Source: a bacterium (GTDB lineage: Bacteria; Patescibacteriota; Saccharimonadia; CAILAD01; JADZBC01). Taken from it: a stretch of DNA of 64,000 nt. Position numbers and translations under genes: made by a program. Shown in pieces: positions 27,627 through 49,883 of the stretch. The stretch lies in the NCBI GenBank assembly GCA_020852295.1, contig JADZBC010000009.1, positions 286,435 to 350,434 of the forward strand, in the 5' to 3' direction. The notes beneath the pieces are model-generated. The model worked only from the letters and a program-made list of their open reading frames with translations. It made no database searches and was not told the origin of the DNA. Positions within the stretch are counted from its first letter, which is position 1. The number at the start of each line of letters is the position of its first letter.

Positions 27627-27710
27627 TGGTACCCGGGGCGAGACTCGAACTCGCAAGCCTTGCGGCAAAGGATTTTAAGTCCTTCGTGTATACCATTCCA
27701 CCACCCGGGC
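27627..27710 (-). tRNA. tRNA-Leu(TAA), class II, CCA encoded
   Basis: Reverse complement GCCCGGGTGGTGGAATGGTA...; anticodon loop CTTAAAA; long variable arm. Confidence 0.85.
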
Positions 27711-37642: not shown

Positions 37643-38353
37643 ATGAAAAACAAACAATCTGAAACTCTGTACTGCTTTTCACCGCCGGTCATGATCGTCA
37701 CTTTTTTGATCGAAATTGGGTTGGCAGCATACAGTGCCTGGCGCTTTCGACTGACCAAGCTCAACCGGCTCGCGATACTGACGTTAGTTTTACTGGCAAC
37801 CTTTCAGTTAGCTGAATTCAATATCTGTCAGGGTACTTTTCCTGGGCCCGACTGGGCGCGCCTTGGTTTTGTGGTGATCACGCTTTTGCCGCCCCTCGGC
37901 CTCCATATGGTCACTGCCATCACTGGCCGAAAACGGACCAACATACTTCTTTTGTCATATGTTCTCGCTGGTCTGTTTGTAACGTTTTTTGCTTTTTTTC
38001 CGAATTCTGTTTTTCATGAGCTCTGTGGCGGCAACTATATTATATTTCGACTTGATCTACTGGCTGGCCGCCTGTATGGCTTGTATTACTACGGCTTGCT
38101 TATCCTCTCTATTGGCTTGGCAGCCTACGAATATCGTCTCCCAAAGACAAAAGCACTGATCAAGCAGACATTACGCTGGCACATTTTGGGTATGCTCGTC
38201 TTTATGGTGCCAACTGCCATCGTCAATACGATCGATCCATCAACGATCGCTGGCATTCCATCGATCTTGTGCGGTTTTGCCGTACTTTATGCGCTCATAC
38301 TAGCGCTCGTAATTATTCCGGCCAATTCGCGCAAATCGCCGCGCTTGAGCTAA
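37643..38353 (+). CDS. hypothetical 7-TM membrane protein
   Basis: 236 aa with about 7 TM helices. Confidence 0.45.
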   Translation: MKNKQSETLYCFSPPVMIVTFLIEIGLAAYSAWRFRLTKLNRLAILTLVLLATFQLAEFNICQGTFPGPDWARLGFVVITLLPPLGLHMVTAITGRKRTNILLLSYVLAGLFVTFFAFFPNSVFHELCGGNYIIFRLDLLAGRLYGLYYYGLLILSIGLAAYEYRLPKTKALIKQTLRWHILGMLVFMVPTAIVNTIDPSTIAGIPSILCGFAVLYALILALVIIPANSRKSPRLS

Positions 38354-38379
38354 GCACGACAACAGATTAGAATAGGACT

Positions 38380-38673
38380 ATGTCAAAACTATCAAAAGAG
38401 GAGCTCGCAAATATTGCGACGCTGGCACGGCTTGGTTTGTCTGAGGATGAGCTTAATAGGCTTGGCGGCCAGGTCGGTAGTATTCTTGAGTTTGTTGAAC
38501 AGCTTCAAAAAATTGATGCCAGCGGGGTTAAGCAGACCAGCCAGGTGACCGGCTTGGTCGATGTTTGGCGTGAAGACGAGGTGGTACGCTGTGAGTTGAG
38601 TCGTGAGGAGCTACTCAAAAATGCACCAGCGACTGAAAAGGGCTATATCAAAGTAAAGCGAGTTTTGCAGTGA
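38380..38673 (+). CDS. gatC: Asp-tRNA(Asn)/Glu-tRNA(Gln) amidotransferase subunit C
   Basis: 97 aa; LARLGLSEDEL and the VDVWREDEV GatC motifs. Confidence 0.85.
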   Translation: MSKLSKEELANIATLARLGLSEDELNRLGGQVGSILEFVEQLQKIDASGVKQTSQVTGLVDVWREDEVVRCELSREELLKNAPATEKGYIKVKRVLQ

Positions 38674-40124
38674 GCGACCTGAGTTATCTTTCTATCGATC
38701 AGGCTCATGATTTGCTGGTACAGAAAAAAATAACTGCAGTTGAGCTGACTCAATATCACCTAGAGCGCATTCGACAGCTTGACGAGGTCTTGGAGCTTAC
38801 TTTGGAGATTTGCGAATCTAGTGCGCTTGCGCAAGCAGAAAAGGTTGATGCTAAGATTGCCGCCGGTGAGGCGATCGGTCTATTGGAAGGTATTCCATAT
38901 ACCGCCAAAGATATGTTCTTAACCGCTGGGATAAAAACAACCGCTGCGAGCAAGATTTTAGAAAAATTCGAGCCGCCGTTCTCGGCAACCGTCATCAAGA
39001 AACTTGATCAAGCTGGTGCAATCCTCATCGCCAAAGTAAATCATGATGAATTCGCCCACGGCACCACGACTGAAAATTCTGCCTATCGCGTGACGCGCAA
39101 CCCTTGGGATACCAATCGGGCACCTGGCGGAAGTTCAGGTGGCAGCGCTGCAGCAGTGGCGGCCGATGTCGGCATCTTTAGCATTGGTACTGATACTGGT
39201 GGTAGTATCCGTCAGCCAGCCGCATTTTGCGGCGTGACTGGACTCAAGCCAACGTATGGCCTCGTCAGTCGCTATGGGGTGGTGGCGATGGCAAGTAGCC
39301 TCGATACGATTGGGCCCGTGACGCGTAGTGCGCAGGATGCAGCCATTGTCCTGGCAGCTATTGCCGGACGCGATGTGGCTGATTCAACCACCATTCAAAT
39401 TGATGACTATGACTTTGTAAAAGGCAATGATTCTCTAGCTGGTAAAACGGTTGGTGTGATTAAGCAGTATATTGATGGGCTCGACGATGATAATCGACAG
39501 GTTTTTGATGCAGCTGTTGCACGTATGAAGGAGGCCGGTGCAAAGGTTCGTGAGATCGATATGCCAAACATTAGCTACAGCTTGCCGTGTTATTACATTG
39601 TTGTGCCGTCGGAAATTAGTTCGAATCTTAGCCGCTATGATGGTATCCGCTTTGGTTACTCTGATGAGACAGCTACCGATTTGCAGCAGACCTACCTCCG
39701 GTCGCGCGGGAAGGGATTTGGACCAGAGGCAAAGCGTCGCATTATGACCGGCACCTATGCGCTCTCGGCGGGATACTATGATGCCTATTACAAGAAGGCA
39801 ATGCAGGTTCGCACGCTTATAATCGAAGATTTTCGCCGAGCGCTTGATGAAGTTGATTTTTTAGTAGGCCCGACGTCGCCGACGCCGGCCGTGAAACTTG
39901 GTGAAAATGCCGAAGACCCGGTCGCGATGTACCTGCTGGATATCATGACCGTTGCGATCAATCTGGCTGGTGTACCTTCTGTTTCGGTACCGGCTGGTTT
40001 TGTCGACAACCTGCCAGTTGGCATGCAGATCATTGGCCGGCAGGGTGATGATGGCGATGTGCTGCGCGCCGCTCGCGCATTTCAGCAGGTTACTGATTGG
40101 CATGCGAAGAGGCCACAGCTATGA
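38670..40124 (+). CDS. gatA: Asp-tRNA(Asn)/Glu-tRNA(Gln) amidotransferase subunit A
   Basis: Amidase signature GGSSGGSAAAVAA; 4-nt overlap with gatC. Confidence 0.95.
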   Translation: MSDLSYLSIDQAHDLLVQKKITAVELTQYHLERIRQLDEVLELTLEICESSALAQAEKVDAKIAAGEAIGLLEGIPYTAKDMFLTAGIKTTAASKILEKFEPPFSATVIKKLDQAGAILIAKVNHDEFAHGTTTENSAYRVTRNPWDTNRAPGGSSGGSAAAVAADVGIFSIGTDTGGSIRQPAAFCGVTGLKPTYGLVSRYGVVAMASSLDTIGPVTRSAQDAAIVLAAIAGRDVADSTTIQIDDYDFVKGNDSLAGKTVGVIKQYIDGLDDDNRQVFDAAVARMKEAGAKVREIDMPNISYSLPCYYIVVPSEISSNLSRYDGIRFGYSDETATDLQQTYLRSRGKGFGPEAKRRIMTGTYALSAGYYDAYYKKAMQVRTLIIEDFRRALDEVDFLVGPTSPTPAVKLGENAEDPVAMYLLDIMTVAINLAGVPSVSVPAGFVDNLPVGMQIIGRQGDDGDVLRAARAFQQVTDWHAKRPQL

Positions 40125-40597
40125 ATCTCGCAGTGACACTTTTGATATTGGTTTTGGCTGCCGGCCTGCTACTGCTTGGTTTTATTGTGATGTTTGATGC
40201 GCGCGGTGGGGTCAATGCTGTGGCCGGGATGAAAAAGCGCCCGAAAAAGAATGTAGTGTATACCGAACGGTTTGATATCGATATTGTGCGGCAGCGCTGG
40301 TCGGAGATAAATGCCAGTATGCATACTCCATCCGGCTTAAAGCACGCCGTTGTTGAGGCCGACAAATTGCTCGATCACGTCCTCAAAGCCAAGGGCTACC
40401 ATGGTGAAACGATGGCAGATCGCATGAAGAAGGCTCAGAATCAGTTTAGCCGCCGCGAGGCAGTTTGGGCGGCCCACAAGCTGCGTAACCAGATGGTGCA
40501 TGAAGTGAACCATGATCTTGTTCCTGCTCAGGTCCACGCGGCCGTGAAAGACCTTGGTCAAGCGATAATCGATCTAGGAGTGAGGCTTTATGACTAA
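40121..40597 (+). CDS. membrane-anchored HEPN-domain protein (HepT/DUF86-like) inserted between gatA and gatB
   Basis: N-terminal TM helix (LAVTLLILVLAAGLLLLGFIV), then a C-terminal W-x5-RN-x3-HE motif (VWAAHKLRNQMVHEVNHDL) matching the HepT HEPN Rx4-6H RNase motif; ATGA overlap with gatA and an 8-nt overlap with gatB. Confidence 0.5.
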   Translation: MNLAVTLLILVLAAGLLLLGFIVMFDARGGVNAVAGMKKRPKKNVVYTERFDIDIVRQRWSEINASMHTPSGLKHAVVEADKLLDHVLKAKGYHGETMADRMKKAQNQFSRREAVWAAHKLRNQMVHEVNHDLVPAQVHAAVKDLGQAIIDLGVRLYD

Positions 40598-42008
40598 ATA
40601 TACCCCAACCATCGGCATTGAAATTCATGTTCAGCTCAATACAAAAACGAAGATGTTTTGTAGTTGTGACAACGACAGTCGTACGGCCGAGCCGAACACC
40701 AATATATGCCCAGTCTGCTTAGCCTATCCAGGTACTCTTCCGGTCGTAAATGGTGCAGCCGTTCGTTCGGCCATCAAACTTGGTTTAGCTCTCGAGGCTG
40801 AGATAGCGCGCGATACAAAGTTTGATCGTAAAAACTATTTTTATCCCGACCTACCAAAAGGCTATCAGATTAGTCAGTTTGATCAGCCGATTGTTGGCGA
40901 GGGGTACGTTGAGGTACTGGTCGATGGTGAGTGGCAGCGCATTGGCGTGGAGCGTGCTCATCTCGAGGAGGACGCAGCCAAGTTGATCCACCCAGCCGGT
41001 AAGGATTACAGCCTCGTTGACTATAACCGTGGCGGCACACCGCTGATTGAGATCGTTAGTAAGCCCGACATCCACTCCCCGTCGGCAGCGAAGCGCTATC
41101 TGCAGGAAATCTACAACATCGCGATGAGCCTTGGCATCACCAATGGTGATATGGAACACGGCAACTTTAAGTTCGACCTCAACATCAGTGTGAGTGACAC
41201 GGACGAGCTTGGTACTAAAGTGGAGCTTAAAAATCTCAACTCATTTCGCAATGCCGAGCGGGCTTTGAGTTACGAGATAGCGCGACAAACTGAACTGCTC
41301 GAAAAAGGGGAAAAAATTGATCAAGAAACTCGCGGCTGGGATGACGCGAAGTCAAAAACATTTTCGCAGCGCGGAAAAGAAATGGCGCACGACTATCGTT
41401 ATTTCCCTGAACCGGACCTACCTCCGCTCAAGATTACAGATGAGATGATTGATGAGGTGAGAGCTGTGATGCCAGCCTTGCCGCGAGAAGTGCGCAAGCG
41501 CCTCGAATCGATTGGTATTGTCGTTGACGATCAGGATCTACTGATAGATCAGCCGCAGACACTGCAGATTTTTGATGATGCCGCAGACGCGCTTGAGCAG
41601 CCGGCGCTGATCAAAAAGGCGGTCAATTGGTTGGTTGGTGATTATCAGCCGTTGCTTGCCAGGGGACCCTCGAAGCTGACGGGTGCACACTTGGCTGAAC
41701 TCATTTTACTGGTTGATAGCGGAGACATTAGTGGCAAGATCGCCAAAGATATTTTTGCTGAGGTCGTCAATGGGGCGTCACCAAAATCTATTGTGGCCGA
41801 CAAGGGCCTCAAACAGATGTCCGATACTGGCGAGCTCGAAGCAATCGTGAAAGACGTATTAGATAAGAACCCGCAGGCTATTGCGGACTACAAGGCGGGT
41901 AAGGCTCAGGCGCTCGGATTTCTCGTTGGGCAAGTTATGGCCGCGACGCGTGGTCAAGCGAACCCTGGTTTGGTCAACAAACTCCTGGTACAATATCTGC
42001 AAGCATGA
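40590..42008 (+). CDS. gatB: Asp-tRNA(Asn)/Glu-tRNA(Gln) amidotransferase subunit B
   Basis: N-terminus IGIEIHVQL...KMFCSCDN and a C-terminal GatB/YqeY domain. Confidence 0.95.
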   Translation: MTKYTPTIGIEIHVQLNTKTKMFCSCDNDSRTAEPNTNICPVCLAYPGTLPVVNGAAVRSAIKLGLALEAEIARDTKFDRKNYFYPDLPKGYQISQFDQPIVGEGYVEVLVDGEWQRIGVERAHLEEDAAKLIHPAGKDYSLVDYNRGGTPLIEIVSKPDIHSPSAAKRYLQEIYNIAMSLGITNGDMEHGNFKFDLNISVSDTDELGTKVELKNLNSFRNAERALSYEIARQTELLEKGEKIDQETRGWDDAKSKTFSQRGKEMAHDYRYFPEPDLPPLKITDEMIDEVRAVMPALPREVRKRLESIGIVVDDQDLLIDQPQTLQIFDDAADALEQPALIKKAVNWLVGDYQPLLARGPSKLTGAHLAELILLVDSGDISGKIAKDIFAEVVNGASPKSIVADKGLKQMSDTGELEAIVKDVLDKNPQAIADYKAGKAQALGFLVGQVMAATRGQANPGLVNKLLVQYLQA

Positions 42009-42607
42009 AGTATTTAGGTGTCCTCGACATCACCACTCAGCGCATAGTCGCACCGATCAACCAAGTGCTTGATCGAATCATTCCGAATATTCCGGCTGCT
42101 ATTTTTATACTCCTGGTCGGGATCATCTTCATCCGTCTTTTGTCGCACCTCATCAGCTTTAGTTTGCGCATCACACGACTGCAGCGATCCTTGGTTGATA
42201 TCATCGTCAAGCTGATCGATATTGCACTATGGATATTTTTAGGGATCGCCTGTCTCCAGTTTTTGGGTCTCAACAATGTTGCATTGGCGGTATCAGGATC
42301 CTTCGCCTTTATCGTCCTCGGCATTAGCCAGGGTGGCGCGGCTATGGTTGGAGACACACTGTCGGGTCTTGGGTTGGCCCGCGATCGTGATTTCGCAATA
42401 GGGGATCATATTAAGGTAATCGATAAAAAGATTGAGGGTATCATTGAGCAAATGGATATTCGGCGAACACGCATACGCACACTTGAAGGCAAAAAGTACA
42501 TTGTGCCGAACTCAATGATCGATAAGTCAGGCTGGGTGTTGGTGGCGAGGCGGCGCGATCTACTAGCGGCCAATCAGAAAAAAACTAAGAAGAAGGGTGA
42601 ATTATGA
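42005..42607 (+). CDS. small MscS-family mechanosensitive channel
   Basis: Three TM helices followed by the MscS beta-domain (IGDHIKVIDKKIEGIIEQMDIRRTRIRTLEGKKYIVPNS). Confidence 0.7.
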   Translation: MKYLGVLDITTQRIVAPINQVLDRIIPNIPAAIFILLVGIIFIRLLSHLISFSLRITRLQRSLVDIIVKLIDIALWIFLGIACLQFLGLNNVALAVSGSFAFIVLGISQGGAAMVGDTLSGLGLARDRDFAIGDHIKVIDKKIEGIIEQMDIRRTRIRTLEGKKYIVPNSMIDKSGWVLVARRRDLLAANQKKTKKKGEL

Positions 42608-42861
42608 CAACTACAGAGCAAGTTTTGATCGTGGTGCTCAGTATCGCAACATTGTTGCTGCTTACATTTTCAATAATCGCCGCCGTTTTGGTGGTGAAGA
42701 TATTGCGTCGCATACGCGAGATCGCTGACCGGGCACGAGAGGGTGTCGATAGTGCAGCCGATATCGCCCGCGAGGTGGCAGATTCGGTGGCAAGTCCTGC
42801 CTCGATCGCAACGATACTAACAAAAATAATCAATAATCGAGTTAAGAAAAGGAGGAAATGA
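42604..42861 (+). CDS. DUF948-like small membrane protein (N-terminal TM helix plus coiled coil)
   Basis: 85 aa; similar in architecture to B. subtilis YtxG-type proteins. Confidence 0.4.
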   Translation: MTTTEQVLIVVLSIATLLLLTFSIIAAVLVVKILRRIREIADRAREGVDSAADIAREVADSVASPASIATILTKIINNRVKKRRK

Positions 42862-43346
42862 TGGCAGATAAAAAAGATGGTGGAAAAAAGGGTTTTCTAG
42901 CGGGAACAATTCTTGGTGCGGCAGCCGGGGCGGTTGCAGGCGTATTACTGGCGCCAAAAAGCGGTAAGCAGACCCGTGCCGACATTGTAAAAGCAGTTCA
43001 CAAAGGTAACACTGAGCTCGCAAAAGCTGCCCACAACGCACAGGATGAGCTAGGCAAGCGCGTTAATGAACTCAAAAAGGTAGCCGAGGGACTCGGTGGC
43101 AAGGCTGGTGACGACGCCAAAGAGCTCATCAAACAGGCTCAGAAGTCTAAGACGGTACTCGTCAAGAAGACAGCCGAGATCGTTGCGAGCAGCAAAGAAC
43201 TGTCTGAGGCTGCCAACAAAGAGGCTAAAGCGCTCATTGAAGAAGGTCTCAAGCTTGCTAAGAAGCTGGAAACTGAAGTGAAAAAAGCTGGCAAGGACGT
43301 AGCTGCAAAGCCAGCCGCTAAGAAGTCAGCTCCAAAAAAGAAATAG
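42858..43346 (+). CDS. YtxH-like general stress protein
   Basis: N-terminal GxxxGxxxG TM segment (GTILGAAAGAVAGVLLAP) followed by a Lys/Ala/Glu-rich coiled coil. Confidence 0.5.
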   Translation: MMADKKDGGKKGFLAGTILGAAAGAVAGVLLAPKSGKQTRADIVKAVHKGNTELAKAAHNAQDELGKRVNELKKVAEGLGGKAGDDAKELIKQAQKSKTVLVKKTAEIVASSKELSEAANKEAKALIEEGLKLAKKLETEVKKAGKDVAAKPAAKKSAPKKK

Positions 43347-43352
43347 ACTTCT

Positions 43353-43613
43353 ATGCTAAAGCCGCAAAATAAGATTGAAGAACTGCAACACAGTAGCGCT
43401 AAGCTTGGTGTCGATGAGCTCATCGAAGTGCTCAACAGTCCCAAGCGGTTGGCTTGGCTCAATTTCTACACTGGCTTTCTCAAGGGAGCTGGCGGTGTAC
43501 TTGGTGCCGCGGTTGTCTTGGTGTTGTTAGGTTTGGCGGTGCGCTATCTCGGTGGGGTGCCATGGATTGGTGAGCTCATTCGTCAGATTGGTCAAGCGGC
43601 CAAGATAAAATAA
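43353..43613 (+). CDS. hypothetical small membrane protein
   Basis: 86 aa with one central TM helix. Confidence 0.35.
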   Translation: MLKPQNKIEELQHSSAKLGVDELIEVLNSPKRLAWLNFYTGFLKGAGGVLGAAVVLVLLGLAVRYLGGVPWIGELIRQIGQAAKIK

Positions 43614-44356
43614 TGGCTCGTCCAGAGTCACCATCGGGCGAGCATTTACCGTTTCGTAGTGTTGGTGACAAGATTGGTGAAGGCAACTTTGCTGAGGTTC
43701 ATGCCTTCGAACATGACCCAACGAAGATCTTGAAGGAGGTACGGTCGGATGTCTGGCAGAGTGAGACGTTGCAGAAAGCTCGTCAAGAAAGAGGCTTTGT
43801 GCTACCTGAAACGATTCAAGATATTCAGACCTATACAGATTTCTTTAAGGCACTAGCTGAAACTGGCAATCGCGCGGGAGATTTGATCCCGCAAACAATG
43901 TTTGTGTTGGGCCATGGTCGCGACGGCAAACCAACCACCTTCATGGTGCAAGATAGGATTGAAGGGAGCTCCCTAGATCAGGGCGGTACTTATTATGACG
44001 CTCATTTGACGCATGAGCAGAAATACGACCTTTGTGATATTATCGACGGCCTGATTGATGCCTATATCAAGACATACGATGGGCAGCGTGGTTCGACCGT
44101 ACGGTTTGAGAAACCTGATAATTTTATCTATGGTCGGCGAGTTGGCTCCCATGAGCCCCATCGGCTGCATTACATCGATGTGGTGCCACTTGAACGGTTC
44201 ACCCCTGACCGGATGATACTAGAGCTCAACTGGGGCATGGTTAATTACGGCATCGACGACGATTCGGCCCTCCAAACTCGTTACGCGGAGATCGTACAAA
44301 GGATCAACGAGATCGATGAGCTTGGTCGTACGGCGCATCGCCCCCAGGTTGCATAG
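43613..44356 (+). CDS. atypical small protein-kinase-like fold protein
   Basis: Glycine-loop-like IGEGNFAEV, lysine in ILKEV, catalytic-loop-like FEKPDNFIYG and a DFG-position YIDVVP; 247 aa. Confidence 0.4.
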   Translation: MARPESPSGEHLPFRSVGDKIGEGNFAEVHAFEHDPTKILKEVRSDVWQSETLQKARQERGFVLPETIQDIQTYTDFFKALAETGNRAGDLIPQTMFVLGHGRDGKPTTFMVQDRIEGSSLDQGGTYYDAHLTHEQKYDLCDIIDGLIDAYIKTYDGQRGSTVRFEKPDNFIYGRRVGSHEPHRLHYIDVVPLERFTPDRMILELNWGMVNYGIDDDSALQTRYAEIVQRINEIDELGRTAHRPQVA

Positions 44357-49772: not shown

Positions 49773-49845
49773 GGGGGCGTACCTCAATTGGCAGAGCGGT
49801 TGACTTAAACTCAGCTGGTTACGGGTTCGAGTCCCGTCGCCTCCA
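49773..49845 (+). tRNA. atypical tRNA-like gene: 73-nt class I cloverleaf, anticodon UAA (Leu-decoding), A73 discriminator, no encoded CCA
   Basis: Acceptor GGGGGCG/CGCCTCC (one G-U pair), 3-bp D-stem, anticodon stem GTTGA/TCAGC with loop CTTAAAC, 5-nt variable loop, T-arm ACGGG-TTCGAGT-CCCGT; a GC hairpin follows at 49853-49875. Confidence 0.5.
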
Positions 49846-49883
49846 CGTATTGCGCCCTGGTTTCGGCCAGGGTGCAAACCCCC

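Follow-up and report, generated by a model that had tools for sequence, protein, structure and literature searches.

Ribonucleases (RNases) of the HEPN superfamily are, to our knowledge, known in prokaryotes almost only as toxins or immune effectors, such as HepT, the Abi proteins, Csm6/Csx1, Cas13 and the effectors of retrons. The gene that we describe here encodes an intact HEPN active-site signature and behaves as a core housekeeping gene, fixed behind gatA in the essential gatCAB operon, a combination that would surprise specialists in HEPN proteins and in toxin-antitoxin systems. It lies in a stretch of 64,000 nucleotides (nt), referred to below as the window, of contig JADZBC010000009.1 (positions 286,435 to 350,434, forward strand) from a bacterium of the Saccharimonadia (assembly GCA_020852295.1). 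Among described systems, HepT/MntA is defined by a match to PF01934 or PF08780, by an RX4HXY motif whose tyrosine is AMPylated by MntA, and by an adjacent MNT gene with GSX10DXD (Yao et al. 2020, PMC7641770). The HEPN active site in general comprises Rx4-6H at the end of helix 3, a polar residue (N, D or H) after the arginine and a conserved acidic residue in helix 2, and the bacterial membrane-associated groups are the DUF4145-type, with a transmembrane (TM) helix of WP signature, the Abi2/Swt1-type behind a TM helix, and HEPN-2TM-Zn-ribbon (Anantharaman et al. 2013, PMC3710099). We consider the product of the gene, a protein of 158 amino acids (aa), to be a housekeeping, membrane-tethered HEPN RNase or RNA-binding module that is functionally tied to GatCAB and tRNA. 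Taken whole, this reading seems to us evenly poised between right and wrong; its structural and evolutionary part is near certain, and the part that concerns a tRNA/GatCAB substrate stands at roughly one in three.

Read from its ATG, the open reading frame (ORF) occupies window positions 40121-40597 on the + strand, both in the ORF list and by direct reading of the sequence. It is coupled on both sides, as a preliminary description of this DNA had stated: the start codon (40121-40123) and the gatA stop TGA (40122-40124) overlap as ATGA, and the stop TAA (40595-40597) ends an 8-nt overlap with gatB, whose ATG is at 40590. Since an identical protein is present in NCBI (annotated as hypothetical) and a first homologue search gave 80 homologues, with E down to 1e-97, we take the ORF to be a real gene. 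A TTG at 40097 was considered as its start and rejected, because the homologues and the NCBI protein begin at the ATG at 40121, which is preceded by a Shine-Dalgarno sequence. Overlaps of 4 nt are common across this compact genome (gatC/gatA, where the gatA GTG start overlaps the gatC stop; gatB/mscS-like; the junctions at 42604 and 42858), so that the overlap by itself is unremarkable and the distinctive feature is the conserved gene order.

An AlphaFold2 (AF2) model of the protein, built on 36 homologues, has a mean predicted local distance difference test score (pLDDT) of 89.5, with values of 95-98 across residues 53-151. After a TM helix (2-28), the model forms the four-helix up-down bundle of HEPN domains (helix 1, 53-66; helix 2, 70-90; helix 3, 112-127; helix 4, 135-151), with the insert between helices 2 and 3 present as a further helix (98-104). 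Its fold is nearest to HEPN proteins, HepT toxins included, and YutE, 7ae2, Csm6 and sacsin are among the further matches. The segment VWAAHKLRNQMVHEVNHDL, in which W-x5-RN-x3-HE had been read, holds W116 (40466-40468), R122 (40484-40486), N123, H127 (40499-40501) and E128. R122-x4-H127 ends the helix 112-127, which is the position of the HEPN motif; the polar residue after the arginine is N123, and the second acidic residue is supplied, by helix position, by D81/D85 within helix 70-90. In an alignment of 36 orthologues (A1) R122, N123, H127, D81, D85, W116, A118, H119, K120 and G95 are invariant, while in a far more divergent set (A2, 27-36% identity) R, N, H, W and G remain invariant and D81 and D85 are conserved at >=90%. 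The pattern W.A[HF]..RN...H is matched by 315/328 collected family proteins. The motif first noticed in a single protein is thus real, and its RNxxxH core is invariant among orthologues.

The hydrophobic residues 3-25 lead into a linker rich in lysine and arginine (K/R). A hydrophobic 19-mer stands ahead of the domain in 282 of 315 family proteins, and the mean K/R count is 0.17 in the 10 residues before the 19-mer against 3.6 in the 15 residues after it. By the positive-inside rule, this distribution places the HEPN domain in the cytoplasm. Since helix 2-28 has no positive n-region it is an anchor and not a cleavable signal peptide, and with about 2 residues outside the membrane the window protein has no extracytoplasmic sensor domain. 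The N-terminal TM helix that had been claimed is supported both by the model and by the family-wide 19-mer. The encoded HEPN domain is tethered to the membrane, faces the cytoplasm and carries an active-site signature that is both complete and invariant.

The family fits none of the three described membrane-associated HEPN groups and is without a Pfam model. Scans of the window protein and 57 relatives against Pfam, NCBIfam and PADLOC gave no above-threshold match; the NCBIfam scan returned nothing at E<=10, and neither did a profile search against all PDB sequences at that limit. The recurrent sub-threshold matches among the 57 relatives are all to HEPN-type models and none to DUF86: HEPN_Swt1 in 8 of 36 members (best E 0.012), Cthe_2314 HEPN (E 0.012), RiboL-PSP HEPN (E 0.0014), PADLOC CARF_HEPN (E 0.0024-0.005) and, weakly, Csm6 models. 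The likeness to the membrane-associated groups consists in a single- or double-pass anchor joined to a cytoplasmic HEPN domain of predicted activity, in these weak matches to Swt1-like HEPN, and in the DUF4145 label that ProtNLM gives to SEML1_0535, a protein to which we return below. In contrast to those groups, the family has no significant match to DUF4145 or HEPN_Swt1; DUF4145 (PF13643) is absent from the full tables of the window protein and ten long-form relatives, nor is it among the 25 families matched most often in the 36 + 21 member scans. It also lacks the WP signature, an extracytoplasmic sensor domain and a Zn ribbon, and it is restricted to Patescibacteria and sits in a housekeeping operon, whereas theirs are restriction-modification or defence neighbourhoods. 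To AF0298/UPF0332 HEPN-T (PDB 2hsb) and TTHA0636 (1wwp) sequence identity is 10%. Unlike the family here, these proteins are soluble and MNT-associated, and the AF0298-type family typically lacks the motif histidine and uses an alternative one (PMC3710099), whereas the classical R...H is kept here.

An exhaustive HMMER scan of 1.84 billion representatives puts the family at 2,059 clusters (50% identity) at E<=1e-3 and 357 at E<=1e-10, nearly all of 100-260 aa. Nearly all named members are Patescibacteria: Saccharibacteria, Falkowbacteria, Kuenenbacteria, Yonathbacteria, Peregrinibacteria and 'Patescibacteria group'. The exceptions by label are three bins of metagenome-assembled genomes, named Chryseobacterium (P0029), Gracilibacteria (L065) and Gammaproteobacteria (L071).

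We anchored 93 loci on the HEPN gene, from 80 GTDB species genomes and 13 metagenome places (one, L069, was reassigned by hand). gatA stands immediately 5' of the HEPN gene in 89 of the 92 loci with upstream sequence; gatB is directly 3' in 74/93, with one extra gene before gatB in four more. Outside Saccharibacteria the link to gatA is kept even with gatB elsewhere. If X denotes the HEPN gene, the order is gatC-gatA-X-lgt in L086, L088 and L090, and in L071 gatC-gatA-X is followed by a 243-aa ORF that is probably lgt by size and position. A PKD protein takes this place in L085 (L091 has the same layout, its 396-aa neighbour being without a recorded Pfam match) and a convergent gene in L092; L093 has gatA-X. 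Start/stop overlaps join 74 of 85 gatA/X junctions (47 of them as ATGA) and 54 of 79 X/gatB junctions, counts in which the choice of start codon slightly favours overlaps.

Three loci depart from gatA-X. The Peregrinibacteria-type L058 has X-coaE and then gatB, and L065 has the same layout, its contig ending after coaE. Gracilibacteria-type recoding was considered as the cause of the missing gat genes in L065 and rejected, since tblastn with code 25 changed nothing. The third is a long-form relative (L089) that lies away from gat genes, between a DUF8128 gene and a gene for a VirD4/TraG-like ATPase. In this region (L089:2704-6184) the relative has 198 aa with an extra N-terminal hydrophobic region, the flanking ATPase being VirD4/TraG/HerA-like, and it may belong to a branch of paralogues that serves another role, perhaps in secretion or conflict. 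A 423-aa protein upstream of the long-form relative in L093, tried as a DUF8128-type partner, turned out to be GatA (Amidase E 1e-145).

Such variety at the 3' side bears on one rival explanation, by which the protein would be a general membrane-associated endonuclease of RNA processing or decay, an analogue of RNase Y, and its position after gatA would only give constitutive co-expression, unrelated to transamidation. RNase Y has an N-terminal single TM anchor and a cytoplasmic endoribonuclease domain, with KH and HD domains; it shares with the protein here the anchor and the cytoplasmic domain, but the KH/HD domains are unrelated and it has no link to GatCAB. The eukaryotic Las1 is a HEPN nuclease with a housekeeping role in rRNA processing, which counts in favour of this explanation. 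As an essential HEPN nuclease that is not a toxin it resembles the case here; it differs in being eukaryotic, soluble, partnered with the kinase Grc3 and without a GatCAB link. [quoted passage not shown] However, gatA-X in 89/92 loci, from Saccharibacteria to Falkowbacteria and Yonathbacteria-like bacteria, exceeds what would be expected of mere co-expression, and we regard a general RNase as unlikely.

A control anchored on gatA instead (80 metagenome loci, GatA at 45-58% identity) has an X-family ORF in 12 loci, always 3' of gatA and on the same strand, and an ordinary gatA-gatB junction without X in 33. Hence the HEPN gene is a lineage-specific insertion into a widespread ligA...gatCAB neighbourhood and not a general feature of the operon. 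By tblastn, neither 72,556 plasmids nor 50,697 phage genomes contain a relative. In Patescibacteria the gene belongs to the core and is inherited vertically; it is not a mobile toxin.

Some loci carry an additional insert of 0.45-1.5 kb, between the HEPN gene and gatB (L019, L042, L046 and L047) or between gatA and the HEPN gene (L161 and L164), from which it appears that the operon tolerates further insertions at these two junctions. A second recurrent neighbour, also membrane-related, is lgt (L086:4001-5292, L088:4001-5268, L090:4001-5280 and L071:3872-5102, where lgt is assumed); in several non-Saccharibacteria Patescibacteria the X-lgt junction is often a 4-nt overlap, and DsbA/thioredoxin-like genes follow.

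Published data bear on the fitness value of the gene. Transposon sequencing (Tn-seq) and structure-based annotation are available for Southlakia epibionticum (Wang et al. 2023, Cell; PMC10633639), where SEML1_0535, a 420-nt gene for a 'hypothetical protein' of 139 aa, lies between gatA (SEML1_0536, 4-nt overlap) and gatB (SEML1_0534, 1-nt overlap) and carries two flags, core family and Patescibacteria-enriched (PMC10633639, Table S1). Its position, size, overlaps and fold label, and not its sequence, are our grounds for equating it with the HEPN family. No Pfam model matches it, the ProtNLM label is 'DUF4145 domain-containing protein' (0.98; Table S2), DPAM puts its residues 26-135 in a 1wty-type domain (Tables S1/S2), and the main text of that paper does not mention it. 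Its Tn-seq calls over three time points are GD, GD and ES, so that it counts as essential at the last of them, the normalised reads going from 126.6 to 5.9 to 2.8 (PMC10633639). The HEPN gene is likely to be important for growth. The supplementary tables of PMC10633639 already give the gene, its fold class and its fitness call, without interpretation. The arrangement had been put forward as undescribed, and this stands in so far as a literature search for HEPN together with gatA/gatB found nothing relevant, and so no paper that links HEPN with gatCAB; it does not stand for membrane-associated HEPN proteins, which are a class described before.

The preliminary description had assigned the protein to HepT/DUF86 and had suggested an orphan toxin, or an abortive-infection or stress RNase, that landed in the gatCAB operon without MntA. 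There are grounds for the comparison. The HepT/DUF86 proteins (Shewanella SO_3166, PDB 5yep; Aphanizomenon HEPN, PDB 7ae2) are likewise minimal HEPN four-helix bundles of about 100 residues, with an R-N-x3-H motif about 30 residues from the C-terminus; the model is nearest to HEPN proteins that include HepT toxins; and the weak PADLOC CARF_HEPN and Csm6 matches point the same way. Against it, PF01934 is without a match at E<=1 in the 57 member scans, and both PF01934 and PF08780 are absent from the tables and frequent families already named for DUF4145. The residue at H+2 is tyrosine in 1 of 315 proteins, mostly being V, A, I or T, although the tyrosine of RX4HXY is the one AMPylated in HepT (PMC7641770); the residue at H+1 is E or D in 281/315. 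No MNT gene adjoins the HEPN gene in any of the 93 loci, and a regular-expression scan of the 64-kb window found no small MNT-like ORF. The absence of an MntA partner from the window had thus been seen correctly; it is no anomaly, as the family lies outside the HepT/MntA system. The protein is not a HepT toxin and needs no MntA. Besides these differences it has an N-terminal membrane anchor, and it is core, vertically inherited and operonic with gatCAB, where HepT is mobile and patchy. Absence from plasmids and phages, and depletion of insertions in S. epibionticum where neutrality might be looked for (PMC10633639), also contradict an orphan toxin or abortive-infection module. That idea is already largely refuted, and we hold it to be barely credible.

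How would a housekeeping HEPN module tied to GatCAB and tRNA work? The short N-out/C-in anchor and the flexible basic linker would keep the minimal HEPN domain at the cytoplasmic surface of the membrane. The gene is a fixed cistron that comes straight after gatA, and in Saccharibacteria it has gatB on its other side; its protein is therefore made along with GatCAB, with which the gene is co-transcribed and probably co-translated. HEPN RNases work as dimers with a composite active site, and by analogy the domain here may do the same. The HEPN toxin of Aphanizomenon (PDB 7ae2 family) reportedly trims tRNA acceptor ends, a finding said to be that of Songailiene and co-workers in 2020. HEPN RNases often target tRNA, as stated in the abstract of a Cas13 paper; here the protein might cooperate functionally with GatCAB and act on tRNA or on some other RNA linked to translation. 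That the gene keeps its place behind gatA suggests a function related to GatCAB or to the tRNAs that GatCAB acts on. From the invariance of the active-site set we would expect an endoribonuclease that is catalytically competent and independent of metal, or at the least a module that binds RNA specifically. An active enzyme is probable, since non-catalytic HEPN domains usually lose Rx4-6H (PMC3710099).

The same observation limits a second rival, a non-catalytic accessory subunit whose HEPN domain would be a protein- or nucleotide/tRNA-binding adaptor that tethers GatCAB or the transamidosome to the membrane or stabilises it. Strict placement after gatA across Patescibacteria with frequent start/stop overlaps would agree with such a subunit, and so would the HEPN-fold domains of nucleotidyltransferases and sacsin, which are binding domains. 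GatB and GatC of S. epibionticum are also flagged as 'Patescibacteria-enriched' families, which suggests that the enzyme has diverged and could have co-evolved with one more partner (PMC10633639). Moreover, an additional protein confined to one lineage is already known to assist GatCAB and the transamidosome: in Helicobacter pylori, Hp0100 (QueH) stimulates GatCAB and stabilises the Asn-transamidosome (PMC8406222). Hp0100 is unrelated in fold and sequence, and its link to GatCAB is biochemical, whereas the link here is genomic only. Yet R, N and H are kept in 315/328 proteins together with the acidic residues of helix 2, which is not how non-catalytic HEPN domains typically behave, and an adaptor alone is to our minds rather unlikely.

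Several points weigh against our own reading of a housekeeping module tied to GatCAB and tRNA. Foldseek gives the same ranking as above, with HEPN toxins at probability 1.00, and its E-values are weak (0.03-0.16). Because sequence-profile support stays below threshold, assignment to the HEPN superfamily depends on the predicted structure and the motif. The wider family is not exclusively gat-linked, as L089 illustrates. Insertions in SEML1_0535 may be depleted because they are polar on gatB, which is essential and lies downstream, and its Tn-seq call comes from only 8 input insertions (PMC10633639). Adjacency to gatA is no proof of a physical or functional link. Finally, an active RNase that is made constitutively would need tight specificity or control.

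A bolder version of the reading can also be imagined, namely a four-component tRNA amidotransferase of Patescibacteria. The HEPN protein would then be a true partner of GatCAB, docking the transamidosome at the membrane and using its RNase site on tRNA; for example, it might cut or trim unamidated Glu-tRNAGln or Asp-tRNAAsn, or process tRNAGln/tRNAAsn. We consider this decidedly unlikely. If correct, a HEPN nuclease would be an essential housekeeping factor of translation fidelity across a bacterial superphylum, and a physical link to GatCAB, if true, would add a new component to the textbook pathway of aminoacyl-tRNA synthesis. Much of the bacterial diversity that is still uncultivated is patescibacterial, and most essential genes specific to these lineages are without an assigned role. 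Here is one that occurs in thousands of Patescibacterial lineages and is apparently needed for growth in the one genetically tractable relative. The gene is small, its fold is clear, the point mutants are obvious (R122A, H127A) and a candidate partner is defined, which makes this Patescibacteria-specific essential gene directly testable. Table 1 lists the features of the locus.

Table 1. Features of the gatCAB locus, in window coordinates
Feature	Position	Strand	Basis or remark
Promoter-like TTGAGC-17-TAGAAT	38345-38373		Upstream of gatC; such matches are not above chance in the region
gatC	38380-38673	+	First cistron of the operon; Pfam GatC E 8.6e-23, ORF list
gatA, glutaminase subunit	38670-40124	+	Pfam Amidase E 2.7e-141
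Shine-Dalgarno-like GAAGAGG	40106-40112	+	8 nt 5' of the ORF ATG, within the gatA 3' end; direct reading
HEPN gene, 158 aa, single-pass membrane protein with cytoplasmic HEPN domain	40121-40597	+	ORF, homologues, AF2 model
N-terminal transmembrane helix, residues 2-28	40124-40204	+	AF2 helix
K/R-rich flexible linker, residues 29-52	40205-40276	+	pLDDT 54-68; variable length in alignment; charge counts
HEPN domain, residues 53-151	40277-40573	+	Four main helices and insert
D81-K-L-L-D85, invariant, helix 2	40361-40375	+	Alignment A1; HEPN definition PMC3710099
W116-x-A-H-K-L-R122-N123-x3-H127-E128, Rx4H motif, C-terminal end of helix 3	40466-40504	+	Alignments A1 and A2
Shine-Dalgarno-like GGAGTGAGG for gatB	40577-40585	+	Within the HEPN gene 3' end; direct reading
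gatB, kinase/transamidase subunit with YqeY tail	40590-42008	+	Pfam GatB_N E 9.4e-116, GatB_Yqey E 1.3e-42

In a scan for promoters and terminators between 35 and 45 kb the counts are at chance level, and no terminator-like site was found on the + strand from gatC to gatB save one weak site within gatB. The operon belongs to a co-directional run of seven genes (38380-43613) joined almost wholly by 4-nt or 8-nt start/stop overlaps. After gatB the run continues with genes for an MscS-like channel (42005-42607), a membrane protein of 85 aa (42604-42861) and a YtxH-like protein (42858-43346); 3' of the last of these, after a 6-nt gap, comes a DUF5665 gene (43353-43613). The order ligA...gatCAXB-mscS-...-DUF5665...dnaE recurs in other Saccharibacteria (L002-L004). 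Two ORFs without a Pfam match flank the operon: one for a 236-aa multi-pass membrane protein between ligA and gatC (37643-38353), and one for a 247-aa soluble protein upstream of dnaE (43613-44356).

Two minor observations concern tRNA-related genes. In a Falkowbacteria-type locus a QueH gene (L085:7455-7988) lies about 3 kb 3' of gatC-gatA-X, which may be coincidence. The window itself has 10 tRNA genes, five of them called Leu, and among these ARAGORN places two tRNA-Leu(taa) genes, at 49773-49846 and 27627-27710. The former is only 74 nt long, short for a class II leucine tRNA with its long variable arm, and it may be miscalled or an unusual tRNA.

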